Source: Nanobdellota archaeon
GTDB lineage: Archaea > Nanobdellota > Nanobdellia > Parvarchaeales > Parvarchaeaceae
Reading direction: 5' to 3'
DNA: 64,000 bases
NCBI GenBank assembly: GCA_021791655.1
Contig: JAJYWD010000002.1
Span: 2,128-66,127, forward strand
Shown here in pieces: positions 62 through 58,378 of the stretch. The notes under the pieces are model-generated. The model was not told where the DNA came from and did not search any database. It saw only the letters and a list, made by a program, of their open reading frames with translations. How positions within the stretch are numbered: position 1 is the first letter of the stretch; every line of letters starts with the position of its first letter. A program made the position numbers and the translations under genes.

Positions 62-3000
62 GTGAATTTTACAGAAAAAACGCTTAAATACGAGTATCTT
101 CCTTCTTATAATATGCTACGACTTAAAAGTAATGAAATATTGATGGATTATGGCATAGCTAGAGTTGGACTATTTGCTGCATCGATAATTATACTGTTCC
201 TAGCGCTTTCACTGCTATCCGCACAAATGAACGCTCTGGGCGGAAATGTCAACCCGATTAGTTTACATTCTCCGCAGATCTCATTTAGTAGCTCCCCACC
301 CAAAATAAAATTGTCTATTTCGGGAAATAAGTCCTACGGCAACGTAATTAACATAATAGTAAATATCCCGAACACTTCAGATTATGTCGGCATAAAGATT
401 AGTAACAACGGCTACGATTTTGTAGTGCCTCTCAACAGGCCAATGGCCGCATATTCTGGATTGCTCCCGGTAGGTAAATATACGGTGATCGCATTTTCTA
501 ACAGCAGCGGGATTAAAGATATTACCAAACCCCTAAAAATAAAACAGGCAAAACCGAAGGTAAGTTGCACCCACACTCCCAAATCGAGTTTCGACTATAA
601 CGGTACACCGTTCCATTTGACATGCAATGTAAGCACAATCGATAATCAGCTTAATTATAATTTGTATATAAAATACACATCTAAGAACGGTGGAAAACCA
701 TGGGATAAATATATAGGAAATACAAACACATCGATTTCCTATTCAAATGCCTCGGCAGGCAAATATACATGGACATTCAACACTACTAGAAACCAAAATT
801 ACTCTACTACAAAAAAGGCGGGACACTTAACGGGATACTTATCTATAAAACCTGGAATCGCAATGGAACTAAATGGAGCAATGGATAAAAGACAGCAGAT
901 GGTATACGGCACGCCATCAAATTTCAGCGCCTCTATATCGCCATCCACTGACTTCATCAGCATTTATATAAATGGCACGCTTATGGCAGGACCACGAAGG
1001 GGGAACGTAACATACTCTACTTTGCTGGGTGCAGGCATGTATAAAATTACTGCAGCGACTAATGCTAGTCATATCATTAATGTCTCCTATTTTGAGAATG
1101 TCAGCAAGGCAACCCCGACCATAACCCTTACTGCGACAAGAGGCAACTTCACCTACAACGGCACGACTGAGAATATCAGCGGCTCCGTGTCCAGTGTCAA
1201 CAGCCAGGTCTCCGGTAGTCTATACATCAACGGCTTATTGGAGTCAAGCCTGTACAAGAACGCTACCGCTGGGATATGGAGCGCATGGTTCAACACCACT
1301 GCAAACCAGAACTATTCCGCAGCCCAGTCCCACATCGCAAGGCAGATCTACAAGGCAACGCTCACACAAACATTATCGTCAAGCCCTACGTCTCCTTTCA
1401 CCTACGACGGCAGCGCTCCGACGATAACCGACACTCTTTCAGGCACGCTGGTCAGCGGGCAGTCTGGGCTGTCTTTCGCTCTCGGTAACGATTCGCTCTC
1501 TACGGGGTCTACCGGCTCATCCACGCTTTCCTCTTCGTCTTTCACGTTCTCAGCCCTCGGCGGGAAGTACGCTTCGGCGGGTCCTTACAGTTACACCTCC
1601 ACGTCTAGCGGGGACCAGAACTACACTATTATGAATTCGCCTCCTTTGACAATCACGATAAGCAAGGCAACGCCAGCCATGTCATTGCTTTCTGCACCCG
1701 GCAACTTCACGTACAACGGGACGGAAGACGCTTTTACGGGGGCAGTGACCAGCGTGGATGACCAGCTTAGCGGCGAATTGTACGTGAATGGCACGCTGAA
1801 AACTGGCCCGTATTCGACCGCGACGGTCGGCGTTTACAAAGCCGTATTCAATACTTCTGGCAACCGGAATTACAGCGCGGCTTCTTCAAAAGTCTCGGTC
1901 AGCATCCTACTGGCGGTCCCGGCGCTTTTGTGCGCGTCTAAGCCGGGGAATTTCATAGAAAATGGCACGCAAGAAAACTTGACCTGTAAGATAGACACCG
2001 TAGACAACCAGCTAGCAGCCGATTTGTATATAAACTATTCAAATTCGCTTGGAAGTAGGTGGATGAAATACATAAACCAGACAAACAACGACATTTCGTA
2101 TTATAACTCATCATGGGGGGGATACACCGCGATATTCAATACGTCCGGTGACCAGAACTATACTGGTTTTTCCGTTAACCGAAGCTCTGTAATCAGGTTA
2201 GAGCGTGCGATCATTACAGTAACACCCCCACCGACCTCACAGCCGACTAACAACACGTTGAACTCTTCAAGTTCTGCCGCGAACAACTCGCATTTAGCCG
2301 GTACCAACCCTTCCGGCGTAAATACGCAGAAGGTCTTGACTAATCGAACTAACTTGAACGAGACCAACTTCGGCGACCACATCGTGGAAGTTTATCTCAA
2401 TACGAGCGTGCAAAACGATGCTGTTACTTTAGACTTATCCAAAGTCGTCCCGTCATCTAACTTTTATATACCTATAACTGGAAGCGGCGTAGGCGTGACG
2501 GGCCTGATTGGGATATCTATGGACGAGAATATTAACACTAGCAACGTAAAACTGAATGTAACTAAAGTATCTGACGCCACATGCTTCGGCGGCAATTTGC
2601 CTGCACCAGTCTCATTTGTAAACATAACAACACCATTCAACGAGAGCAAAATATCGCAAGTGATTTATTATTTTGAGGTAAGCAAACAGCAGCTAGCCGC
2701 AGCCAACTTGAGCGCATCGGAAATATCACGTTACAGATGCAACCCGGAAACGCACGAATGGCAGGAACTGCCGACCTATTTCGTATCACAGAATTCTACA
2801 ACAGTCATCTACAAGGCGATATCGCCAAGTTTCTCGCTGTACGGCAGCGCAAAGGGACAGACGATTATGCCGCAGAATACAAGCAGTGCAAACTCGCACA
2901 AAAAGAATGCGACATCGGGCAAACAGGCCCAATTGGTGGAAGTGCAGAGCCTTATTCCTACTAAGGCTTCGGATCCTGGATTTTTGTTCTCATTCATGGC

Positions 3001-3067
3001 GATAGGCGCCATCGCTCTGCCGCTGCTAAGCATGGTAGTATACAGAAAGATATGCACGGTGAGGTAA
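62..3067 (+). CDS. Large cell-surface glycoprotein: N-terminal signal-anchor, about six tandem Ig-like repeats, Thr/Pro/Ser linker, PGF-CTERM-like C-terminal anchor. The ORF opens at GTG 62; the first ATG is at 113 (MLRLKSNEIL...).
   Basis: 1001-aa ORF with a hydrophobic N-terminus (GLFAASIIILFLALSLL) and dozens of N-X-S/T sequons. A repeated module carries NFTYNGT...DNQL...LY(I/V)NG...NQNYS. The linker is TVTPPPTSQPTNNT. The C-terminus is DPGFLFSFMAIGAIALPLLSMVVYRKICTVR, i.e. PGF, a TM helix and a basic tail. Confidence 0.7.
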   Translation: MNFTEKTLKYEYLPSYNMLRLKSNEILMDYGIARVGLFAASIIILFLALSLLSAQMNALGGNVNPISLHSPQISFSSSPPKIKLSISGNKSYGNVINIIVNIPNTSDYVGIKISNNGYDFVVPLNRPMAAYSGLLPVGKYTVIAFSNSSGIKDITKPLKIKQAKPKVSCTHTPKSSFDYNGTPFHLTCNVSTIDNQLNYNLYIKYTSKNGGKPWDKYIGNTNTSISYSNASAGKYTWTFNTTRNQNYSTTKKAGHLTGYLSIKPGIAMELNGAMDKRQQMVYGTPSNFSASISPSTDFISIYINGTLMAGPRRGNVTYSTLLGAGMYKITAATNASHIINVSYFENVSKATPTITLTATRGNFTYNGTTENISGSVSSVNSQVSGSLYINGLLESSLYKNATAGIWSAWFNTTANQNYSAAQSHIARQIYKATLTQTLSSSPTSPFTYDGSAPTITDTLSGTLVSGQSGLSFALGNDSLSTGSTGSSTLSSSSFTFSALGGKYASAGPYSYTSTSSGDQNYTIMNSPPLTITISKATPAMSLLSAPGNFTYNGTEDAFTGAVTSVDDQLSGELYVNGTLKTGPYSTATVGVYKAVFNTSGNRNYSAASSKVSVSILLAVPALLCASKPGNFIENGTQENLTCKIDTVDNQLAADLYINYSNSLGSRWMKYINQTNNDISYYNSSWGGYTAIFNTSGDQNYTGFSVNRSSVIRLERAIITVTPPPTSQPTNNTLNSSSSAANNSHLAGTNPSGVNTQKVLTNRTNLNETNFGDHIVEVYLNTSVQNDAVTLDLSKVVPSSNFYIPITGSGVGVTGLIGISMDENINTSNVKLNVTKVSDATCFGGNLPAPVSFVNITTPFNESKISQVIYYFEVSKQQLAAANLSASEISRYRCNPETHEWQELPTYFVSQNSTTVIYKAISPSFSLYGSAKGQTIMPQNTSSANSHKKNATSGKQAQLVEVQSLIPTKASDPGFLFSFMAIGAIALPLLSMVVYRKICTVR
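548..2201 (+). repeat. Intragenic tandem repeats (about six copies of an 85-100-aa module) inside the surface glycoprotein gene.
   Basis: At protein level, KATPTITLTATRGNFTYNGTTENISGSVSSVNSQVSGSLYINGLL and KATPAMSLLSAPGNFTYNGTEDAFTGAVTSVDDQLSGELYVNGTL recur, as do KPGNFIENGT...DNQLAADLYINYS and FDYNGT...DNQLNYNLYIKY. Each copy ends in NQNYS or NRNYS. Confidence 0.6.
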
Positions 3068-7784: not shown

Positions 7785-8477
7785 TCACAGAGGGGGCGCG
7801 CTTTCTTTATTCTTGCGATGCAGATAGAACAGAAAGACCGCCGCAACTATTAATGCTATGATCACGCCCCCGTAAATAACGATATACGTCCCGCTCTGGC
7901 TGGGCGCGCCGAACTGTCCGGGCGGTATGCTAAGATTGAAGATGTTACGGGAGAATTCCGACAGTGCAGTATAATATGGCACGTTCATACCGGGACTGTT
8001 ACCGAACACGTCGAGTTCTGCAGTGGAATCGTTTATGAGCAACAAAAACGATGCTGTATCGCCGGCTGGCGACACCAAGAGACCATAAGCATGGAAACCG
8101 ACAACCCCCGATAAACCGAAAGTCTGGCCGGAAAAATTAGTATATCCGCTCACCCGATACATGTATGCAAACGCTGCGGATGCGGATGAGAGATTAGCGT
8201 AGTTCACCAGTCTGTAAATTGGGGAAAAATTACCATACTCGGGGAGATTATATTCATACGCAGTAAGCACGCCCTTCCCTATGACCGGATAAGTAAGATA
8301 AACGCTCGTGATATTACTTATGCTGGAGTAGTTAGTAGGCATGATCGAATATGAAGTGGCAGACGAAACCGCTACTGCTACGGAAAGTAGCAATGGTATG
8401 ACTAATGCTCCCATCGCCGCGATCCTCACGAAGTCTAAGTCTCCCATACACCGTCCACCCACGTGTTCATTTTGCAC
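7785..8477 (-). CDS. Secreted N-glycosylated protein with a C-terminal TM anchor. The likely start is the internal Met of MGDLDF... or MGALVIPLL...
   Basis: Signal-like AAMGALVIPLLLSVAVAVSSA, many N-X-S/T sequons, and a C-terminal TM (VIIALIVAAVFLFYL) followed by HRKNK. Confidence 0.45.
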   Translation of the reverse strand: MQNEHVGGRCMGDLDFVRIAAMGALVIPLLLSVAVAVSSATSYSIMPTNYSSISNITSVYLTYPVIGKGVLTAYEYNLPEYGNFSPIYRLVNYANLSSASAAFAYMYRVSGYTNFSGQTFGLSGVVGFHAYGLLVSPAGDTASFLLLINDSTAELDVFGNSPGMNVPYYTALSEFSRNIFNLSIPPGQFGAPSQSGTYIVIYGGVIIALIVAAVFLFYLHRKNKESAPPL

Positions 8478-10462
8478 GCCATATTAGCAGTGTTGGAGTA
8501 CTGAGTCACATTGACGTACTTGTACGTGCCAAGAGTACTTATTGTTATCGGTGAGGACGCAGAACCGACGCCGCCAGCCGCAGTAAACGTGTGAGAGTAT
8601 ATGTTGGTCCATGTACTACCGTCGTTAGATACAGCCCATGTCAATGTTACATCAGTGCCATAAGAAGCACATCCTCCGTTTAGAGCATCATAAGCGTAAA
8701 ATCGAGCGTAGAACGTCCCGGTTAGTGAGGAAGAAAACGTCCATTCCCATTCTGCTTGTTCCCACTGGGCCGTCCAACCGTCATTTGTCGTAATATTACC
8801 GTAAACGCCGTCGGGGATAATTGTAGCACCCGGGTTTGTCTGAACGTTATTGGTGGTGGGATTCCAACTGCCAGAGGCGGTGAAAACCGGTGTGGAAGGG
8901 TAATTGATACAGGCCGTGGAAGCCGAGAACGTGATTGACTGCGACAGTCCTGAATAAAGGGAACCAGACGAAGGCGAAGGAGTGTAAGTTGTAGTACAAC
9001 CGCCAGACGAGTTGGACAGCGTATTGACCGAGTAAGAATAATTACCGTAGGACGTAGTGAACGTTGTAGAAGTGGTTGTTGGATTATTCTGTACACTGTC
9101 GTAAGTAACATGCCATGTATAACCCGATGGAAGACCGGATTCCGTGAATGTGGTGATTAGTGGAGCTATTAGTACAGAGGGCATCACATCATTGGGTGGT
9201 GCAGCCCTCACATCAGTCCAGTAAGCTAAATCTGGGTAATTGAACGTACTCGGGGCCTTCGGGGATGACGCACCCTGACAATAGTTGACAAACGCCGCGT
9301 AGTCTGTCATTGATGAGCCGTATCCCCCCCCTGAAGCTATGCTCTTGTAGTTTATAGAATAAGCCGAACTTCCGGCTGTCACAGATGCAGAAAGTATTAT
9401 ATTATTAGAATTCGGAACGGCGTATGTACCGGAGATACCGTACACTTGTGCACTCGTAGAATTCAAGTACGAGAAGAAGTGACCTGGACCAGGTGAACAA
9501 TACGGTCCCCAGCCAAAGTCGGTATACTGTATAGCCGCGCCGCTGGGTAATGAACCGAACAATGCATCAGTCGCGTAGCCTCCATTCGGCGTAGACGAAT
9601 TCGAAAATGTAAAACCAGGGGTGATTACAGACTCCGCCTCACCAGCAGACGAACTGACGAGAAGACCGTCGTTGGCGGTGACCGTGGAATTCCCTTTTAA
9701 TGTGAGAGAAGAGAGACTAGTGGAATTTTTAAAGTCGTCATAAAATGTGAACACATGGGCACCGTCATCGTACTCGCCGTATACGGGAGACAATTGCGGC
9801 GCTTCTCCGGTGGTCAGTGTATTTAAAACGTTGTCATTCGTAGGGAAGAAATCCATATATACGGTTATGCTAGATAGACCTGGTATCCCAGGCCCTATCT
9901 TTAGCCAGTATGTGCTATTGCCGCTTTTGTTGTCATATTCCATCCAGGAAGGCAAGACCGTGCCGTTAGTATAAGAAAATCGTATGTTGTCGAGATTACC
10001 AGCTTCGTATTGTGAGTATGTCTTAGAGTTGAACACTAACATTTGCTGGAATGGTGCCGCAGTGCCGGCGGTCTGCGAATTTGTAAAGGATATCGGCAAT
10101 TGCAGTACTGGCTGAGGGGGGATAAAACACGTGGCGCTTATCGCGTTAAAAAGCGGAACCGACACTGTCACTATGTAAAATGAAGAGGTGCCATTAAGGA
10201 TTATGTATCCAGACCAGCTACCAAAAGTAGTAGTGATGTTATTTTCGCGTCCAAGGGGCACTCCGGATGCGGACAGCACGGAGATGTTAAAGTTGGCGTA
10301 ATCCTCAGGCCCTCCACTAGAGCCCAGGAACTGAAGCGAATAGGTGAAGTTGATAGACCCATTCGATATAGAACTTGTCTTATACTGGCTGCGTACGGAC
10401 GAGAGGGGGAGATTAAACCGCATCAAGGCTTGGGCCTGCCCATTTACCACTTCTACTTCCAT
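8435..10462 (-). CDS. Large extracellular N-glycosylated protein (putative adhesin). It lies in frame with, and 9 nt downstream of, the pilin-like ORF.
   Basis: 675 aa, Ser/Thr/Asn/Gly/Tyr-rich with many sequons. The stop is TAG. Confidence 0.55.
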   Translation of the reverse strand: MEVEVVNGQAQALMRFNLPLSSVRSQYKTSSISNGSINFTYSLQFLGSSGGPEDYANFNISVLSASGVPLGRENNITTTFGSWSGYIILNGTSSFYIVTVSVPLFNAISATCFIPPQPVLQLPISFTNSQTAGTAAPFQQMLVFNSKTYSQYEAGNLDNIRFSYTNGTVLPSWMEYDNKSGNSTYWLKIGPGIPGLSSITVYMDFFPTNDNVLNTLTTGEAPQLSPVYGEYDDGAHVFTFYDDFKNSTSLSSLTLKGNSTVTANDGLLVSSSAGEAESVITPGFTFSNSSTPNGGYATDALFGSLPSGAAIQYTDFGWGPYCSPGPGHFFSYLNSTSAQVYGISGTYAVPNSNNIILSASVTAGSSAYSINYKSIASGGGYGSSMTDYAAFVNYCQGASSPKAPSTFNYPDLAYWTDVRAAPPNDVMPSVLIAPLITTFTESGLPSGYTWHVTYDSVQNNPTTTSTTFTTSYGNYSYSVNTLSNSSGGCTTTYTPSPSSGSLYSGLSQSITFSASTACINYPSTPVFTASGSWNPTTNNVQTNPGATIIPDGVYGNITTNDGWTAQWEQAEWEWTFSSSLTGTFYARFYAYDALNGGCASYGTDVTLTWAVSNDGSTWTNIYSHTFTAAGGVGSASSPITISTLGTYKYVNVTQYSNTANMACKMNTWVDGVWET

Positions 10463-10471
10463 GGAACCTGG

Positions 10472-10825
10472 CTACACGCCCGCACTTATGGGCAAAATGC
10501 CAGTAATCGGGAGTATAGTACTTTGAATGGACCTTGCATTCTGCGAGGTTACGTACATAAGATTATTGCAGAAAAATGTTTGCCCTGGGATTATGCCGGG
10601 GGAGTGTAGGGTAAAATCTACAACAGAGCCGGCCTGCTGGGTACTCACACTGTTCGCTGCGCTTATGATGTCTTCGGCGGCAAGGTTAAGATTGCTGGAT
10701 GACGCGGACAGAGATGCACCTGTGAAATACGTGAGCGAGTAAGATGTTATTATGGCGAATACCGCGATAGCGATACCTATTATTATAAGGTACTCCAGCG
10801 AGGCCTGCCCACTTCTTTTTATCAT
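10472..10825 (-). CDS. Archaeal type IV pilin-like protein (class III signal peptide, DUF361-like).
   Basis: The N-terminus MIKRSGQASLEYLIIIGIAIAVFAII is the classic prepilin-peptidase motif (K/R-x-G-Q-A-x-L-E-Y plus a hydrophobic helix). Confidence 0.7.
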   Translation of the reverse strand: MIKRSGQASLEYLIIIGIAIAVFAIITSYSLTYFTGASLSASSSNLNLAAEDIISAANSVSTQQAGSVVDFTLHSPGIIPGQTFFCNNLMYVTSQNARSIQSTILPITGILPISAGV

Positions 10826-10828
10826 AAA

Positions 10829-11425
10829 TCAAACATGAAGGAACTTGTCTACCAGAGAGTTTATCCTTTCACTGACCTGCATTATGCTTTTCTCGCCGTC
10901 GACCTTCTTGAGGTGAAATTCCTTGGCTATGGATAAGAAAGCCTGCCTAACCCTGCTGACAGTCTCCTGCCTCTCGAAAAGGTGGAGGTTTGAAGGTTCC
11001 TCGCCCAAACGCGAGATTGCGGTTTTCGGTTTGACATCTATTAGTATGCCTAGATCTGGGAGCCTGAATTTAAGGTTTATAGACCTAAGCCATTTGTAGT
11101 TAACGCCAGATGCGTAACCGTAGGCCAGCGTAGAAAACAAATACCTATCGCAAACAACCACTTTACCCTTGGCCAGATATGGTTCTATCTCGCTCGAGAG
11201 GTGATGTGCGCGGTCGGCACAAAACAGTAGCTGAAGGGCGTCCGGTGAGGTGCGCCACTCCTGGCTGAGTGCGGCCTTCGATATCCCTCCGATTAGGCTG
11301 TTAGTCGGCTCCTTTGTGACCAAAAAATGGATGCCATTGCTGTTTAGGTGCTCTCCCAGCAGCGCTACTTGTGTGGACAGGCCAGCACCGTCTAGTCCTT
11401 CAAGAACTATGAATTTTCCATTCAT
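10829..11425 (-). CDS. Thymidylate kinase paralog with a degenerate P-loop (GLDGAGLST: the Walker A Lys is replaced by Leu).
   Basis: 198 aa with a dTMP-kinase fold pattern (FIVLEGLDG...CDRY...). It is translationally coupled (ATGA overlap) to the upstream tmk. Confidence 0.65.
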   Translation of the reverse strand: MNGKFIVLEGLDGAGLSTQVALLGEHLNSNGIHFLVTKEPTNSLIGGISKAALSQEWRTSPDALQLLFCADRAHHLSSEIEPYLAKGKVVVCDRYLFSTLAYGYASGVNYKWLRSINLKFRLPDLGILIDVKPKTAISRLGEEPSNLHLFERQETVSRVRQAFLSIAKEFHLKKVDGEKSIMQVSERINSLVDKFLHV

Positions 11426-12030
11426 ACTACAGACATCACCTCTGTGAGAATCTCGCCTGATATTGAGTTTTTAGTACCGGAATCTAAAAATAGCTTCCAT
11501 CTTTCGGAAAAGAAAGAATTGCTGAACATACGCTCATACAAACCGCCGACTTTTTCCATAAGCCGGAGGTCATTTTCAAAAACGTCGCCACGACGAGATG
11601 CCCTCTTTCTCTCGAGTGTCTCCTTAACCTGCCCATGCAGAAGAATCGTAAGGGTCGGCTTCGGAAGATCCAGCATTTCGACAATAAGTTTCGCCTTGTC
11701 GTACGGTAGTCCCTGGGCACACTGATACGCTACAGATGAGAACACATACCTTTTGCTTATAACAAGATCGTTCTTGTTTAGAAGTTCCCTTATATTTCTT
11801 GAGTCTTTCGTTATGTCTGCCAGAAAAAGGAAGAACTGGGAATCCGGCCCGAGCTTTACCTTGGACGCAAGAAAATTTCTTATTATCCTGCCGAATTGGG
11901 AGCCGTAATCCGGGTACGAAAAATAGGCGGCCTTCAATCCCTGTTCCTTAAGATTCTTTTTCAGGAGATCGAATTGCGTGTCTTTACCCGAGCCGTCTAT
12001 ACCTTCCAAAACTATAAATTTCCCGGCCAT
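11422..12030 (-). CDS. tmk: Thymidylate kinase.
   Basis: 202 aa with FIVLEGIDGSGKDTQ (Walker A) and DRY-like SKRYVFSS. Typical tmk length. Confidence 0.8.
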   Translation of the reverse strand: MAGKFIVLEGIDGSGKDTQFDLLKKNLKEQGLKAAYFSYPDYGSQFGRIIRNFLASKVKLGPDSQFFLFLADITKDSRNIRELLNKNDLVISKRYVFSSVAYQCAQGLPYDKAKLIVEMLDLPKPTLTILLHGQVKETLERKRASRRGDVFENDLRLMEKVGGLYERMFSNSFFSERWKLFLDSGTKNSISGEILTEVMSVV

Positions 12031-18840: not shown

Positions 18841-19653
18841 ATGAAAGTTAGCGCGTTTAAGTTCGTTAAGGTCCTTTTGATAATGCTGATAACCATTTTA
18901 GGCACTGTTCTTTTCACGCTCTATACGCTCTCGCTTTACAGCTCACTCAACATAAGCACGTCACAGGTATACGTGATACCTTCATATCTTTATGTGATAT
19001 ACTTCATAGCGGGCCTGATCGGATTCACGGCCCTTATCCTACTTCTCATAAAACTAAAACTGGGCGGCGTGATCTTCTGGATGTTCGCAGTTATATTAAC
19101 CCTGATTTTGGTTGAGTTCTTTAGTTCCTTCATAGGTATTTTCGGCATCCCATTGGCCATTCTTGTTTCTTATTACTATTACAGGAAAGCGGGGAACACC
19201 GGCAGGAATATCGTTAATCTGGCCATATTCATAACGGTGGGATCTGTTCTGGCCCTGGCATTGGGAGTGACCTTTGCGCTAGTGCTAACTGCAGTTGTAG
19301 CGGTGTATGACTATATCGCTGTTTTCAGAACCAAGCACATGGTTACCCTAGCAAAGGGCATGCTAGATTACGGATTTTTCGCAGGGATGATATTGATGGC
19401 AAAGAGACTAAAGCTACCGAAAGATAAATTCGTTATAGGGGGTGGCGACCTGATATTCCCAGCGATGCTTTCGACCGCAGTATTCTTGTCCTATCCGCTG
19501 CCGGCTTTCTTACTTACAACTTTCGGGGCAACCCTTGGTTTAGCACTTCTATTATTGCTTGGCAGAAAAGGAAAAGCTTACCCGGCGATGGCAGCGATGG
19601 GACCGATGGAGATTCTATTTTTCGGTATTTATATACTTCTGAGCGTCATCTAA
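18841..19653 (+). CDS. GxGD-type intramembrane aspartyl protease, a presenilin/signal-peptide-peptidase homolog (A22-like).
   Basis: 270 aa with 8-9 TM helices. It has YD (VAVYDYIAVF), GGGD (VIGGGDLIFPAM) and a C-terminal PAL-like motif (AYPAMAAMGP), spaced as in archaeal PSH. Confidence 0.5.
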   Translation: MKVSAFKFVKVLLIMLITILGTVLFTLYTLSLYSSLNISTSQVYVIPSYLYVIYFIAGLIGFTALILLLIKLKLGGVIFWMFAVILTLILVEFFSSFIGIFGIPLAILVSYYYYRKAGNTGRNIVNLAIFITVGSVLALALGVTFALVLTAVVAVYDYIAVFRTKHMVTLAKGMLDYGFFAGMILMAKRLKLPKDKFVIGGGDLIFPAMLSTAVFLSYPLPAFLLTTFGATLGLALLLLLGRKGKAYPAMAAMGPMEILFFGIYILLSVI

Positions 19654-26350: not shown

Positions 26351-28120
26351 TTACTCCAGCGTCTTCTTCAAACCATAGTCGTCCTTCAGTCTCTTTTCGC
26401 TTATCTCGGACGGAGAGCCGTCTATCGGCGATTCGAACGTCTTGGTCTTCGGAAACAGTATGAAATCGCGTATGTTATCGTTGTGCTTAAGCACGGCAAG
26501 CACTCTATCAAATCCGAGGGCAAAACCAACGTCTTCGGGCGCGCCGTACTTGAGCGCCTCTAGCAGGAAGCCAAAATCCTTTTCTACGCTCCTTTCGCTA
26601 ACGTTTATGATTTTGAATATTTTCCTCTGCAACTCATCGCTGTTTATCCTGACCGCTCCTCCGCCGATTTCGTTGCCGTTCAGCACCAAATCGAACTGCC
26701 TGGACAGTACCGTATGGGGAGAAGTCTCCAGCATCTTTATGTGGTTGTCCATTGGTGCGGTGAACGGGTTGTGTGACGGCTTCAATTTCCCAGTGACTTC
26801 GTCCTGCTCGAACAGCGGGAACTCATCCACCCACACGAATGCGTACTCCTCGCTGAACCTGCCTATAGCGTCGCCAACAATCTTTCTCAGTTTGCCCAGA
26901 ACGCCGTCAAGAACGCTTTCGGAGAGGTCCGCACCCATTATTATGACATATCCATCCTTGGCCTTCGTCTTGGCGACAATCTCGTCCGCTGCCTTGCCTA
27001 ATGACTCTGCTATGCTCTCCGGCGCGGAACGGAGCTTACCCTCTTCTACAAATAGCCATGTCAACCCCTTTAGACCAAGAGACTTTGCTTCTTCGACGAT
27101 GCCTAACATATATTTCCTGTTTATCTTGCCTCCCCCGAAACCTGCATCGAAGGCCACGCCTTTCGCCTTTCCGCCCGCTTGTAGGACCCTTGTTATCACG
27201 TTGTAGCCACAGTCCTTAAGTTCGCGCGTGAAATCGATTATTTTGTAGCCGTATCGTAGATCCGGCTTGTCGCTCCCATAGTCTTTCACGGCTTCCGCGT
27301 AGCTCATGCGGTGGAACTTCGGCGGTTGCTTTTTCAGTATTTCCTTGAATATTTTCTTAAACAAGCTTTCTATCAGTGCTTGGACGTAGGCTTCATCCTC
27401 GAAAGATATTTCCATGTCAATCTGAGTGAACTCGGGCTGCCTGTCCTCCCTTGCATCTTCGTCCCTGTATGCCTTGCACACCTGGAAATACTTGTCAAGG
27501 CCGGCAACCATACACAGCTGCTTGTAGAGTTGTGGTGACTGTGGCAGTGAATAGAACCTTCCCTTCCGGGTGCGCGATGGCACTAAAAAGGTGCGGGAAC
27601 CGGTCTCATAAGTGTCCCTCACAAGGGTCGGTGTCTCGAGTTCCAAAAATCCGTTTCGCCAGAAAAACTTCCTCATCAGCTTTGATACGGAATCCCGGAA
27701 TTCTATGTTGTCCACCATCTCCTTCCTTCTGAGATCCAGATACCTGTACTTCAATCTGATATCTTCGTTGGCCAAGAACTTTTCCTTCTCTTCTATAAGT
27801 TCGAACGGTGGAGTCTCGGATCGATTTATAACAGAAAACTCATCTACAGCCACTTCTATTTCGCCGGTGGGATTTGACTTGTCTATTGTATCCTTCTCGC
27901 GCTTCATCACGCAGCCGTGGACCCTAACAACAAATTCGCGCTTCAACTCCCCCGCCCCCTTATTTTTATCGCTATCAAAAACTATCTGGGTCACCCCATA
28001 CCTGTCTGCCAAGTCTATGAAGATTTTATCTTTGTGTCCACGCACGTATCTGCACCAACCGTTCAGCATTACCTCCTTATCTTCGTCCGTAGTACGCAAT
28101 TCCCCGCAGTTTACTTCCAT
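26351..28120 (-). CDS. aspS: Aspartyl-tRNA synthetase, bacterial-type (has the GAD insertion domain).
   Basis: 589 aa with an N-terminal OB fold. It carries the class II motifs FRDED and GFALGFDRV, and QSPQLYKQLCMVAGLDKYFQVCKAYRDED matches the bacterial AspRS QSPQ box. An insertion of about 100 aa sits between motifs 2 and 3. Confidence 0.85.
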   Translation of the reverse strand: MEVNCGELRTTDEDKEVMLNGWCRYVRGHKDKIFIDLADRYGVTQIVFDSDKNKGAGELKREFVVRVHGCVMKREKDTIDKSNPTGEIEVAVDEFSVINRSETPPFELIEEKEKFLANEDIRLKYRYLDLRRKEMVDNIEFRDSVSKLMRKFFWRNGFLELETPTLVRDTYETGSRTFLVPSRTRKGRFYSLPQSPQLYKQLCMVAGLDKYFQVCKAYRDEDAREDRQPEFTQIDMEISFEDEAYVQALIESLFKKIFKEILKKQPPKFHRMSYAEAVKDYGSDKPDLRYGYKIIDFTRELKDCGYNVITRVLQAGGKAKGVAFDAGFGGGKINRKYMLGIVEEAKSLGLKGLTWLFVEEGKLRSAPESIAESLGKAADEIVAKTKAKDGYVIIMGADLSESVLDGVLGKLRKIVGDAIGRFSEEYAFVWVDEFPLFEQDEVTGKLKPSHNPFTAPMDNHIKMLETSPHTVLSRQFDLVLNGNEIGGGAVRINSDELQRKIFKIINVSERSVEKDFGFLLEALKYGAPEDVGFALGFDRVLAVLKHNDNIRDFILFPKTKTFESPIDGSPSEISEKRLKDDYGLKKTLE

Positions 28121-28319
28121 GATACAGTTATTTTAATCCTTGTGTTATTTATGTTTTCAATTTTTGGGTTCGCTTTCACCCCCATGAATGACAGGTGTGT
28201 TCCTCCCACACTGATAACACGGGGATTTATAAACTACCCAAAACTTCCGGAAGGGGATTCTCGGCGGAACTGTTAAATAGACCCTGAAGTATGGAGGCCG
28301 TGCACCCTTAGAAAATCGG

Positions 28320-31497: not shown

Positions 31498-32907
31498 CTA
31501 AGGCAGACCCAAGACAATCACTTTACTCTGGTTGTATAGCCCAGCATACAAAAGCCCGTTGATAGGATCGTAGGTTAGTCGCAGCGGGTCTGCATTCGGG
31601 AATGGCATGCTGATGTTATTGATTATTACGTTGCTGTTAGAGATAACGAAAATAGAGTTAGTGCCCCACTCTGAAGTGTATATATTTCCATCGGAAGGAT
31701 CATAAGCGACGTTGGAAGCACAACACGGACCCAGTGAGATGTTGGCGATTGTACTGGAAGTAAGGGGATCTATCACAGCCGTTGAATTAAAGGCCCATGT
31801 AGCAAAGTAAACATAGCCGTTCTTTGGATCGTATACGCCATCGTTCCATCCCGCCCCCGTTATATTCTCTGTGGGAGTAACGCCCGAGATTACAGTGGTT
31901 ACCAGTTTATTGCCGATAGGCACGTAGATATCGCCGTTGGCGGGATCGTATGCGGCTGTGGACCACGTTCCTGACGTTAGGGCGGCCGGTAGCGCCGGCT
32001 CAGCAACTATTGCATTTGTTGATGTATTTATTATAAACACTTTACTGGAGTTCCTGCTACCGACATATAAAAGCTTGTTCTGAGAGTCCAACACCGCGCC
32101 CCACGTTTCTTCCCCCGTTTTAATGGTGGTTACAAGCGATCCAGAAGGCGTAATAACCGATATATTAGCGCCGGCGCTGTAAGTAACATAAAAGTCACGG
32201 TCGGTTGGAACGTAAACCGCGCTTATCGGGCTGGCATTGTAAACTTTTATGGTATTAACTACGGCATTTGTGAAGCTGGAAATTACTGAGATTGTACCGA
32301 TTCCGTTATTGACAATGTACAAGTTCCCGTTCACTGGGTAGTATGTAACGGTGTGTGGATGTGTGCCAACGCTGATATTAGCCAAGACTTGTACTGGTCG
32401 GTTAACGCCGGTGCCGCTGGCAACACCGGACGAAGAGTAGGGCCCGGCGAAGGCTACGCCTATCTCACTGTAATTCACAATTATATCGAGAGAATAATGA
32501 ACACCCGTAGATGGACACGCATTGCTTATGAAAACCGGAACCATCGATCCGGCGTTCACTATTATGCCAGCAGTTGGGACATCCGCAACCAATCTTGTTC
32601 CGTTTGAAGTCGTCACGATGACAGTACTTATATTTAGGGGAACACCAAGAGCATCTCCGAGTTTTAGCACAAGGCCATAATTTGAGATGCAACTGGCGGT
32701 AACGCTCCCAAGACCGCCGAAGCCGTTGACGGAAGCGAATATGGAAGCAGACGGATTGAATATCCCTAAGGAATATAGAACGGCAGCGACTATGACTATG
32801 ATGAGTATGGCCCAGCCGTAGGTCATCATGTACTCGAGGGCGGATTGGGATTTTTTGTCTGCTAGAATTTTTCTGTCTGTAATATATACGGAGGACTCCG
32901 GCTTCAT
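31498..32907 (-). CDS. Pilin-like surface protein: a class III signal peptide fused to a YVTN-type beta-propeller domain. The start is taken as ATG 32907; the listed ORF opens at GTG 32928.
   Basis: The N-terminus KKSQSALEYMMTYGWAILIIVIVAAVLY is a class III prepilin signal. The body has repeated about 40-aa units with a YVTN/YV..S pattern (NVAYDPSDGNIYTSEWGTNSIFVI, YDPANGDIYVPIG, YDPINGLLYAGL). Confidence 0.65.
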   Translation of the reverse strand: MKPESSVYITDRKILADKKSQSALEYMMTYGWAILIIVIVAAVLYSLGIFNPSASIFASVNGFGGLGSVTASCISNYGLVLKLGDALGVPLNISTVIVTTSNGTRLVADVPTAGIIVNAGSMVPVFISNACPSTGVHYSLDIIVNYSEIGVAFAGPYSSSGVASGTGVNRPVQVLANISVGTHPHTVTYYPVNGNLYIVNNGIGTISVISSFTNAVVNTIKVYNASPISAVYVPTDRDFYVTYSAGANISVITPSGSLVTTIKTGEETWGAVLDSQNKLLYVGSRNSSKVFIINTSTNAIVAEPALPAALTSGTWSTAAYDPANGDIYVPIGNKLVTTVISGVTPTENITGAGWNDGVYDPKNGYVYFATWAFNSTAVIDPLTSSTIANISLGPCCASNVAYDPSDGNIYTSEWGTNSIFVISNSNVIINNISMPFPNADPLRLTYDPINGLLYAGLYNQSKVIVLGLP

Positions 32908-32955
32908 ACCATCCCTATGTACTATCACGATTTAATACGTTTCTTTTTACTGTGA

Positions 32956-32971
32956 GCGGATCACGATCCGC
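32956..32971. promoter_or_regulatory. Perfect 7-bp inverted repeat (GCGGATC-ac-GATCCGC) in a divergent promoter region.
   Basis: A 16-nt palindrome sits between the divergently transcribed pilin-like gene (minus) and the MFS transporter gene (plus). Confidence 0.3.
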
Positions 32972-33099
32972 GGCTGCCTGCCGTACGGGGGATCGATGGG
33001 GGGCGAGTTATAGTTTGCTAATTTATTTGAGCGTTATGAATGGAAGCATTGACCATACAAAATAGAAAATAGTTTATAGTAATAACTACGTAAAAATAA

Positions 33100-39986: not shown

Positions 39987-41105
39987 ATGAGAGGACAGAT
40001 ACAGTACGAAGGGATAATAATGTTCGTCCTTATGGCGATAATAATCATTTTCCTGGTCTTCGCATTCGCTGGTTTCTTCACGCCAGTAAATTCGCAACAC
40101 TACTACAATGAAATCAACAGCATGATAAGCCAGGCATGTTACTCTACTCAGTCAGCTAGCAGCATCCAGCTAAACAACCCTAAGGCGGTCGTGTTCCAGA
40201 TTTACGACAACCCCGTCTGTAATACGACCCTGTCTAGCAGTCACGCGTTCCAAAACAGCTCGCCATACAACAGCAAGCTATTAAGCAGAAACTTCGACCT
40301 CTGCTATGGAGAACTGGGAAAAAGTGACACGTTCGGCGCGTACAGCACGAAAGTATCCGGCCCGGCCCAATACTACCTTACCGCCGGCAGCGCCCCCCTT
40401 ACATACCTTAGCGTTGTTACACCGGATTCCAACTTGGGACAGCCAACCCCGACTACAGTCTCCTCCTCGTCCAGCGAATTATCAGAATACGGGCTTGCCG
40501 CGGCAAGTGTAGACCAGACGGGGCCGGCGCCAACCTTCAATTCTTACCAAATAGATTGGAACGATCCGATTTACGCGAAGAACAATTACGTGTACACACT
40601 GTACGCTTATTCCAACGTTTCCGGATTGCTGGGTGTGACTATAAGTGAAAGCGGCTGCAATATAGCACCATTTGCGATACAGCTCGCGGCCGGTCACATA
40701 AAGATATCGACGCTAAATCTGGGCTGTAACAGCACAGGCACCATATATACGAACTTCCCTTACGGAGGGATGAACGGAAAATACGTCCCGGTAAAACTGC
40801 AGGAGAACATGAGCGCACAGAAACACGAACTGCCAAACTACTACCAGAACACGCTAGCACAACAGTGCTCCAATCTCGTAACCGACATAAACAATAACGC
40901 AATAGAAAACGGCACGCTAGTGTGCGCACCCATAAACTGCGGTAGCAACAATGCCAATTTCGTGCTTTCCGACGAGCAGAGCAGGCCGCTCCTAGCCATG
41001 TTTCAGGAGAGTTTCCCGTACTTTGCGGTTTCATCCGGCCTGTTTTCAAGCCTCGCCATAACCAATCCCAATGTCGAGGTAGAAAAGAACGAATCGCTCG
41101 TATAG
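39987..41105 (+). CDS. Pilin-like secreted glycoprotein (class III signal peptide).
   Basis: The N-terminus MRGQIQYEGIIMFVLMAIIIIFLVFA matches the RGQ...EY plus hydrophobic-helix motif. It is 372 aa with many sequons and Cys residues. Confidence 0.5.
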   Translation: MRGQIQYEGIIMFVLMAIIIIFLVFAFAGFFTPVNSQHYYNEINSMISQACYSTQSASSIQLNNPKAVVFQIYDNPVCNTTLSSSHAFQNSSPYNSKLLSRNFDLCYGELGKSDTFGAYSTKVSGPAQYYLTAGSAPLTYLSVVTPDSNLGQPTPTTVSSSSSELSEYGLAAASVDQTGPAPTFNSYQIDWNDPIYAKNNYVYTLYAYSNVSGLLGVTISESGCNIAPFAIQLAAGHIKISTLNLGCNSTGTIYTNFPYGGMNGKYVPVKLQENMSAQKHELPNYYQNTLAQQCSNLVTDINNNAIENGTLVCAPINCGSNNANFVLSDEQSRPLLAMFQESFPYFAVSSGLFSSLAITNPNVEVEKNESLV

Positions 41106-41571: not shown

Positions 41572-41695
41572 CCGCCCATAGCTCAATGGCAGAGCGACCG
41601 GCTGTAGAATAACCGAGTGCTACTTTGTAGTGCTATGAAGGGTTTCAGTCGATATAGAAACCGGTAGGTTGCAGGTTCAACTCTTGCTGGGCGGA
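41572..41695 (+). tRNA. tRNA-Tyr (anticodon GTA) with a roughly 52-nt intron after position 37.
   Basis: The cloverleaf has a CCGCCCA/TGGGCGG acceptor stem (C1:G72, as in archaeal tRNA-Tyr), discriminator A, GCTC/GAGC D-stem and GCAGG-TTCAACT-CTTGC T-arm. The ACCGG...CCGGT anticodon stem encloses loop CTGTAG|intron|A. Confidence 0.7.
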
Positions 41696-57493: not shown

Positions 57494-57592
57494 GCGGGGA
57501 TAGCGAAGCTTGGCCCAACGCGCAGGACTTAAGATTCTTATAGGAAATCCTGTGGCTTAGCGCCCTCGTGGGTTCAAATCCCACTCCCCGCA
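57494..57592 (+). tRNA. tRNA-Leu (anticodon TAA), class II with a long variable arm and a roughly 13-nt intron.
   Basis: Acceptor GCGGGGA/TCCCCGC plus discriminator A, D-arm GCG...CGC, T-arm GTGGG-TTCAAAT-CCCAC. Anticodon stem CAGGA/TCCTG encloses CTTAAG|ATTCTTATAGGAA|A. Confidence 0.7.
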
Positions 57593-58281: not shown

Positions 58282-58378
58282 GCAGGGGTAGCGAAGTGGT
58301 CAAACGCAACAGCCTCAAGAAAAACTTGAGCAAGCTGTTCCCTTTGTGGGTTCGGGGGTTCAAATCCCTCTCCCTGCA
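58282..58378 (+). tRNA. tRNA-Leu (anticodon CAA), class II with a roughly 13-nt intron.
   Basis: Acceptor GCAGGGG/TCCCTGC plus discriminator A, D-arm GCG...CGC, T-arm GGGGG-TTCAAAT-CCCTC. Anticodon stem ACAGC/GCTGT encloses CTCAAG|AAAAACTTGAGCA|A. The intron is complementary to the anticodon region. Confidence 0.7.

Follow-up and report, generated by a model that had tools for sequence, protein, structure and literature searches.

On the minus strand of the 64,000-nucleotide stretch analysed here (hereafter the window; contig JAJYWD010000002.1 of assembly GCA_021791655.1, from a Nanobdellota archaeon), two open reading frames (ORFs) lie in the same frame and are separated by a single TAG codon, which raises the question of whether they are two genes, one gene in which the stop is decoded, or one gene interrupted by a mutation or by an error. 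The upstream ORF (10825..10472, 117 codons) has MIKRSGQASLEYLIIIGIAIAV... as its N-terminus and TAG at 10474-10472 as its stop; the codons that follow are CCA, GGT, TCC and ATG (P G S M), and the ATG at 10462 opens a 675-codon ORF (10462..8435) whose own stop is also TAG (8437-8435). The window codons bore out what an earlier note on this DNA had described, namely a pilin-like ORF and a 675-residue ORF in one frame, split by a single TAG, with the second ATG located 9 nt further on. In the public annotation of the source assembly there are separate proteins of 117 and 663 residues, located on a contig of 93 kb. We conclude, with a probability of about 0.9, that the "pilin" and the "adhesin" are the halves of a single 796-residue gene (8435..10825) cut by one T-to-G change, from Tyr to stop, at position 10472, and that they are neither two genes nor a recoding site. 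The gene belongs to a DPANN archaeon with affinities to Parvarchaeota/Micrarchaeota.

The gene in near-identical assemblies and in orthologs

A protein of 796 residues (P0121), which falls in the same 90%-identity cluster as the annotated 663-residue protein, was found to correspond exactly to the 117-residue ORF followed by a Tyr, Pro-Gly-Ser and the 675-residue ORF. It is encoded intact on five contigs (L002-L006), from the Logan assemblies of SRR22746127 and SRR22746122, the ENA assemblies ERZ27237177 and ERZ27237183, and JGI 3300039716. When these contigs were compared with the window base by base, over 4.0-11.3 kb, the sole difference was position 10472, and with longer versions of two of them the stretch showing this single difference reached 12.4 kb. 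Read on the minus strand, this base is T in the other assemblies (TAT, Tyr) and G in the window (TAG), which creates the premature stop at codon 118 (10472..10474). A sixth assembly, the metagenome-assembled genome (MAG) GCA_027335275.1 (contig DAHWOI010000010.1), has TAT too and otherwise matches the window over 26 kb; 9 nt upstream of the variant base it shows a synonymous difference in Ala115, which is GCG in the window and GCT in the MAG (position 10481, minus strand). A second independent inactivation, considered for the calls of 472 and 291 residues in this MAG, was rejected, the cause being a scaffold gap of 10 N with a 2-nt length error. Around the gene, the match of these six assemblies to the window extends over 4-17 kb, and all of them differ from it at base 10472. 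A partial variant about 87% identical (P0124) reads ...AGV-Y-PGSMEVEV through the site. The same-frame adjacency of the two ORFs is not due to chance: once a single base is restored, the resulting 796-residue ORF agrees at every residue with the one recorded for other assemblies.

The state of orthologous loci, fused or split, had been set beforehand as a test in the earlier note, and the locus proved to be fused. The positional ortholog of Candidatus Parvarchaeota GCA_023474765.1 (P0017) is one gene of 927 residues with the same N-terminus, and the order common to both genomes is DNA polymerase II (PolD) small subunit, tmk, tmk, fused gene, pyruvate kinase and L3-L4-L23. The best homologs of the 675-residue part came from metagenome bins of Parvarchaeota and Micrarchaeota. 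It had also been asked whether homologs of this part bear their own N-terminal class III signal, and they do so in 52 of 119 cases when the strict motif, Q(+1) and E or D(+5), is considered; most of the remaining ones show a Sec-type signal or a variant pilin-like N-terminus, or else come from visibly truncated gene calls. A start resembling MEVEVVNG was present in no complete homolog among the 119.

Thirteen homologs sharing the N-terminus type of the window protein were aligned with it through the stop (14 sequences). The alignment was collinear across this site, and the stop column corresponded to Tyr or Phe in all 13 homologs. Invariant positions were found both before (G109, L111, P112 and G116) and after it (G129, Y162 and F166), and Cys86 and Cys233 flank it on opposite sides. 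The reading that had been favoured earlier, a single pilin-fused adhesin of about 790 residues, was upheld by the TAT codon and the 796-residue protein of the near-identical assemblies together with the 927-residue single-gene ortholog.

A scan for related loci in the GTDB representative genomes with the 796-residue protein gave no relative, and DNA-pattern scans around codon 118 in genome and metagenome contig collections, which evidently omit the JGI 3300039716 sequence, gave nothing. No exact record existed for the 675-residue ORF, for P0001 or for the Cdc48-like ORF, and no paper was found on the run and assembly accessions.

The pilin-like module and the domains behind it

The N-terminus of the intact protein consists of the leader MIKRSG followed by QASLEYLIIIGIAIAVFAIITSY, with cleavage predicted before Q7. 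It thus has a short charged leader ending in Gly, a Gln at +1, an acidic residue at +5 and a hydrophobic alpha-1 helix (residues 7-35), as is characteristic of class III signals (10721..10825, minus strand). Q7, E11, Y12 and G17 are invariant in the 14 aligned sequences, and the homologs all retain the Q(+1)/E(+5) motif. The signal helix is the sole hydrophobic segment of the whole protein, and AlphaFold2 (AF2) predicted a helix at residues 5-61. The class III signal proposed earlier for the pilin-like ORF was recognisable by PF04021, a 27-position model, although the score of the 117-residue piece (21.5 bits, E=2.2e-4) and that of the 796-residue protein (18.2 bits) are below the gathering threshold of 23.7 bits.

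An exhaustive phmmer search with the 117-residue piece against 1.84 billion representative proteins gave 39 clusters, that is, 38 relatives and the window's own. The relatives were either 223-238 or 353-1401 residues long, save three short ones (71, 136 and 177 residues), of which two or more are probably fragments; a length of 117 residues occurred only in the window's own cluster. The matches always spanned residues ~1-116 and were always at the N-terminus. Free-standing relatives of about 228 residues aligned to residues 1-235 and finished a few residues past the equivalent of Cys233, with Cys86 conserved too. In the AF2 model of residues 1-251, which had a predicted local distance difference test (pLDDT) score of 89, the stop fell within the strand formed by residues 116-127; in the intact protein the residues around the site (105-130) read …LPITGILPISAGVYPGSMEVEVVNGQAQALMR. 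Since the stop falls midway through a conserved module of about 235 residues, found both free-standing and fused, the 117-residue piece is half a domain. The real pilin-like unit, a long helix plus a beta-sandwich, comprises about 235 residues (residues 1-235; 10121..10825, minus strand), and the TAG halves this module and leaves Cys86 and Cys233, which may form a disulfide, in different fragments. The 117-residue ORF, which had been taken for a pilin, is consequently not a complete one. Being both free-standing and fused, and having a confident predicted fold, the ~235-residue module is a usable handle for finding such proteins.

A DUF2341 domain (residues ~241-340; 9806..10105, minus strand) follows the module. 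PF10102 matched it at residues 279-325 with 28.9 bits for the 675-residue ORF and 27.8 bits for the 796-residue protein, against a cut-off of 23.4 bits, the match being partial (model positions 3-49 of 84). This block was the best conserved among the homologs (PFQQ, NxxF, SW, GEAPQLS and EYDDG) and had an AF2 pLDDT of about 90. The next region (residues ~355-553; 9167..9763, minus strand), which was modelled with less confidence and ends with the conserved RAxPPNxVMPS, is probably a ConA/LamG-like lectin region with a jelly-roll fold, judging from homologs and from a Foldseek search. The homologs P0017 and P0037 matched PF13385 (1.5e-12 and 3.2e-14, respectively), but in inserts that are partly missing from the window protein, whose residues ~355-553 gave no Pfam match; the Foldseek search with the full-length model (pLDDT 62) gave weak matches to ConA-like domains of trans-sialidases and of GH43 and GH16 enzymes.

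Residues 557-640 (8906..9157, minus strand) were predicted as a beta-sandwich with the motif TESGLPSGYTWHVTYD (ESGLPSGYTWHV, ESGLP) and a pLDDT of 70-85; this domain is repeated in the homologs P0007, P0014 and P0017. The C-terminal region (residues 641-796; 8438..8905, minus strand) is rich in Trp, had a pLDDT below 40 and gave no family match. The intact protein contains eight cysteines and 16 N-X-S/T sequons; as about 14 sequons are expected from its composition, the label of glycoprotein that it had received was no more than an inference. In contrast, the statement that the 675-residue part has no obvious signal peptide was confirmed, neither a signal nor a hydrophobic segment being found in it.

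Nature of the stop codon

The existence of two genuine genes, a small pilin of 117 residues and a separate secreted adhesin of 675 residues in a stable split, is very unlikely. Although the public annotation lists the two proteins separately and an ATG sits 9 nt past the stop, the split was conserved in no ortholog and in no near-identical copy, the near-identical copies and the syntenic ortholog all being unsplit. Moreover, the 117-residue product would be half of a domain whose relatives are nearly all longer, and the 675-residue product would lack any targeting signal or hydrophobic segment, whereas its homologs have class III or Sec signals.

Still less likely, and the least probable of the explanations considered here, is that the TAG is decoded by programmed readthrough, by an amber suppressor tRNA or as pyrrolysine to give the full-length protein. 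This possibility was raised by an in-frame stop inside a conserved domain, and the original codon is that of Tyr, for which the window contains a tRNA-Tyr(GUA) gene; misreading of UAG by near-cognate tRNA-Tyr is known in other systems. However, TAG ends 14 of the 64 long non-overlapping ORFs of the window, including conserved housekeeping genes such as that of the PolD small subunit, as well as the adhesin gene itself. The tRNAs found in the 64-kb window were Arg(CCU), Tyr(GUA), Leu(UAA) and Leu(CAA), with introns in Tyr and Leu(CAA), and none had a CUA anticodon. Finally, the stop was missing from all the other copies, which have TAT or, in the orthologs, Tyr or Phe at the site, so that there is nothing conserved to be programmed. 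The TAG is an ordinary nonsense variant or a consensus error, with no special decoding signal.

As for the annotation of these tRNAs, three of them (41572-41695, 57494-57592 and 58282-58378, plus strand) were found by Rfam and were missed or misread by ARAGORN. They correspond to a Tyr(GUA) with an intron of about 50 nt, a Leu(UAA) whose variable arm is long and which ARAGORN listed as undetermined, with an anticodon of 4 bases, and the Leu(CAA) with an intron.

The contigs that Logan assembled independently from run SRR13203224 showed 100% identity with 18 kb of the window; one of them stops at 10474, which is the T of the codon, and its neighbour starts at 10471, just past the variant base. 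Contigs broken on either side of the codon fit an unresolved variant bubble, suggesting that both alleles coexist in this run. The alternative, that the TAG is a base-calling or consensus error of a single assembly and that the organism carries the intact 796-residue gene, is a possibility of lower probability but not a negligible one. It would agree with the presence of TAG in this assembly only and of TAT in six others, among them GCA_027335275.1, which otherwise matches the window, and an odd cluster of four G/T transversions at 28194-28204 could signal local consensus trouble. On the other hand, the breaks that flank the codon in SRR13203224 suggest at least two well-supported k-mer paths rather than a lone error, and true strain-level single-nucleotide polymorphisms (SNPs) separate these assemblies elsewhere, which makes one more unremarkable. 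On this indirect evidence, a real allele at a polymorphic site is preferred to a consensus error, with odds of roughly two to one. Thus, among the origins of the stop contemplated in the earlier note, a nonsense mutation and a sequencing error both stood, with the contig breaks leaning to the former, and leaky termination did not, given the 14 of 64 TAG stops, the lack of a CUA tRNA in the window and the absence of the stop from every other copy.

The cluster at 28194-28204 comprises four transversions within 11 nt that distinguish the window from five other assemblies; it is intergenic and lies upstream of the aspartyl-tRNA synthetase gene (26351..28120). The contigs of SRR13203224 and of the DAHWOI MAG also end at 28193, one base before it. 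Either local hypervariability or trouble with the consensus could account for the cluster.

If the TAG allele is real, it should be a loss-of-function allele, because the 117-residue product is incomplete and the 675-residue remainder, even if translation were re-initiated at the ATG 9 nt further on, has no signal or hydrophobic segment. The stop separates the only signal and anchor from all the downstream domains, and the allele is therefore most likely a loss-of-function variant present in part of the population or, less likely, a consensus error. Nonsense changes represent about 3.8% of the possible point substitutions in the gene, and one nonsense event is statistically unremarkable, especially as the site was picked for its stop. 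There is no difference in kind from the ordinary nonsense polymorphisms and pseudogenes of MAGs, in which a one-base premature stop also appears in one assembly while other copies are intact; the one noteworthy feature is that the affected gene probably encodes a protein for host contact, in an archaeon that depends on a host.

It is doubtful that the TAG is an allele under selection, by which a surface protein used for host attachment or as a virus receptor would be switched off to give on/off heterogeneity. The two alleles probably coexist in one sample, the nonsense change is the only difference from the other samples in about 14 kb around the gene, and just 3.8% of the possible substitutions are of this type; in addition, elevated non-synonymous variation has been described in surface proteins of another DPANN group (PMC6142677). 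Nevertheless, this is a single observation, chosen because it was a stop and hence subject to ascertainment bias, no repeat tract or other switching mechanism was present at the site, and the gene showed no further disruptive allele of independent origin, the split in GCA_027335275.1 being a scaffold gap. More speculative, and quite improbable, is a scheme in which the TAG is kept at intermediate frequency and switches the pilin-adhesin off in part of a population of DPANN episymbionts, allowing escape from viruses or from host defence, while rare misreading by tRNA-Tyr restores a low level of the wild-type protein. If true, an uncultivated ultrasmall archaeon would have a simple means of turning a symbiosis factor on and off at the level of the population. 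The nonsense allele is otherwise ordinary variation, of interest only if shown to be maintained in the population.

Some points weigh against the interpretation of a single pilin-adhesin gene carrying a real nonsense allele. The PF04021 scores lie slightly under the gathering threshold, and the function of adhesin is argued from domain analogy (PMC4858521, PMC8179133). A pilus ATPase (VirB11-type), a TadC/FlaJ-like platform and a prepilin peptidase (A24) were not found among the window ORFs scanned; with no assembly genes among these ORFs, incorporation into a pilus is proposed from the architecture of the N-terminus. With a simple SNP bubble, the left contig of SRR13203224 would be expected to run one base further than it does, and the choice between a real allele and an error is judged from assemblies.

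Proposed function and genomic surroundings

The 796-residue protein can be described as a modular surface protein of the type IV pilin-like class, with a class III signal (MIKRSG/QASLEY..., the slash marking the predicted cleavage), the ~235-residue pilin-like module, DUF2341, the probable ConA/LamG-like region, the ESGLP beta-sandwich and the Trp-rich C-terminus. In the intact protein the leader would be removed by a prepilin peptidase, and the hydrophobic helix would then either anchor the protein in the membrane or bring it into a pilus, where its bulk makes a position at the tip probable. The DUF2341 and lectin-like modules may then bind a ligand, plausibly glycans on the host cell or on a surface. 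The intact protein is probably an adhesin, by analogy with the systems discussed below. As Parvarchaeales depend on hosts and have pilin genes (PMC10134863), attachment to host cells is a reasonable role for it.

Large DUF2341 proteins of archaeal type IV pilus loci (arCOG03508 and relatives) have been proposed to be PilY1-like tip adhesins (PMC4858521; Makarova, Koonin, Albers 2016). Like them, the window protein is large and predicted to be extracellular, has a class III-type N-terminus and contains a DUF2341 domain above the cut-off. The genes of those proteins, however, belong to type IV pilus loci, in Methanococci and other groups, whereas the window gene is located between tmk and pyruvate kinase, and its ~235-residue module belongs to a narrow family (39 representative clusters) whose named relatives are from Parvarchaeota or Micrarchaeia.

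In the modular pilins of Streptococcus sanguinis, PilB (pilin plus vWA) and PilC (pilin plus a ConA-like lectin), a pilin module carries the modules used for binding (Raynaud et al. 2021, PMC8179133). The window protein has the same arrangement, with an N-terminal pilin module and putative binding modules behind it, and PF13385 is present in its close homologs. As in the modular type IV pilins defined by these authors, the module of residues 1-235 also exists free-standing, and DUF2341 and further domains are located behind it. In contrast to PilB and PilC, its signal is of the archaeal Q(+1)/E(+5) type (PF04021/UPF0333) and not IPR012902, the pilin module is much larger, there are several extra domains, and the protein is known here from its sequence.

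The JGI name of the intact protein is "uncharacterized protein (UPF0333 family)". It shares with the euryarchaeal PF04021/UPF0333 (DUF361) proteins, which are EppA-type substrates, the motif [KR]xG/QxSxE[YF] followed by a hydrophobic helix. It differs from them in its scores, 21.5 and 18.2 bits against 23.7 bits, and in that this family typically consists of small pilins and not of multidomain proteins of about 800 residues. The protein is one of many giant class III-signal DUF2341 surface proteins in Parvarchaeota and Micrarchaeota and, as host-dependent archaea must attach to cells, such modular pilin-adhesins are good candidates for host contact. For annotation purposes, the calls of 117 and 663 residues should be joined into a single gene marked as interrupted, with the intact 796-residue form as the reference.

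The pilin-adhesin gene is placed among housekeeping genes, between those of thymidylate kinase and pyruvate kinase, and starts 3 nt past the former. Directly upstream of it there are two tandem, overlapping thymidylate kinase paralogs (10829..11425 and 11422..12030, minus strand); this pair and the surrounding order are kept in the Parvarchaeota genome whose pilin-adhesin ortholog is only about 36% identical.

At its other end, the 675-residue ORF had been said to finish with TAG and to overlap the next gene, and this was the case: the TAG is at 8437-8435 and the neighbour starts with GTG at 8477 in the window (230 residues). In the other assemblies the start of this neighbour is the ATG at 8447, which reduces the overlap with the end of the adhesin ORF to 13 nt and gives a membrane protein of 220 residues with N- and C-terminal hydrophobic segments (7785..8447, minus strand), called with this length in six assemblies. 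This protein had no match in Pfam or NCBIfam, and its gene was not present at the syntenic Parvarchaeota locus (GCA_023474765.1). With an overlap of 13 nt, it is probably co-translated with the 796-residue gene.

The gene at 18841..19653 (plus strand) encodes a homolog of presenilin/SPP-type signal peptide peptidases (PF06550, from the Pfam lists of matching loci). This is a GxGD aspartyl protease, outside the prepilin peptidase family, and it was not counted as pilus machinery.

Another putative surface protein is encoded at 62..3067 (plus strand). It has 1001 residues, is rich in Ser, Thr and Asn, and appears S-layer-like, with an N-terminal hydrophobic segment, repeats of about 190 residues and a C-terminal transmembrane anchor; it gave no significant Pfam match. 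The Logan contigs of two runs both end inside this gene, at window position 1322.

Two further proteins with class III-type signals are encoded in the window, one at 31498..32928 (minus strand; KKSQSALEYMMTYGWAILIIVIVA..., about 450 residues when mature) and one at 39987..41105 (plus strand; MRGQIQYEGIIMFVLMAIIIIF..., 372 residues). Their bodies have no similarity to the 796-residue protein. Strain SNPs (32818-33003) are located at or just upstream of the 31498..32928 gene, and synteny with the matching locus L007 is lost past 33016.

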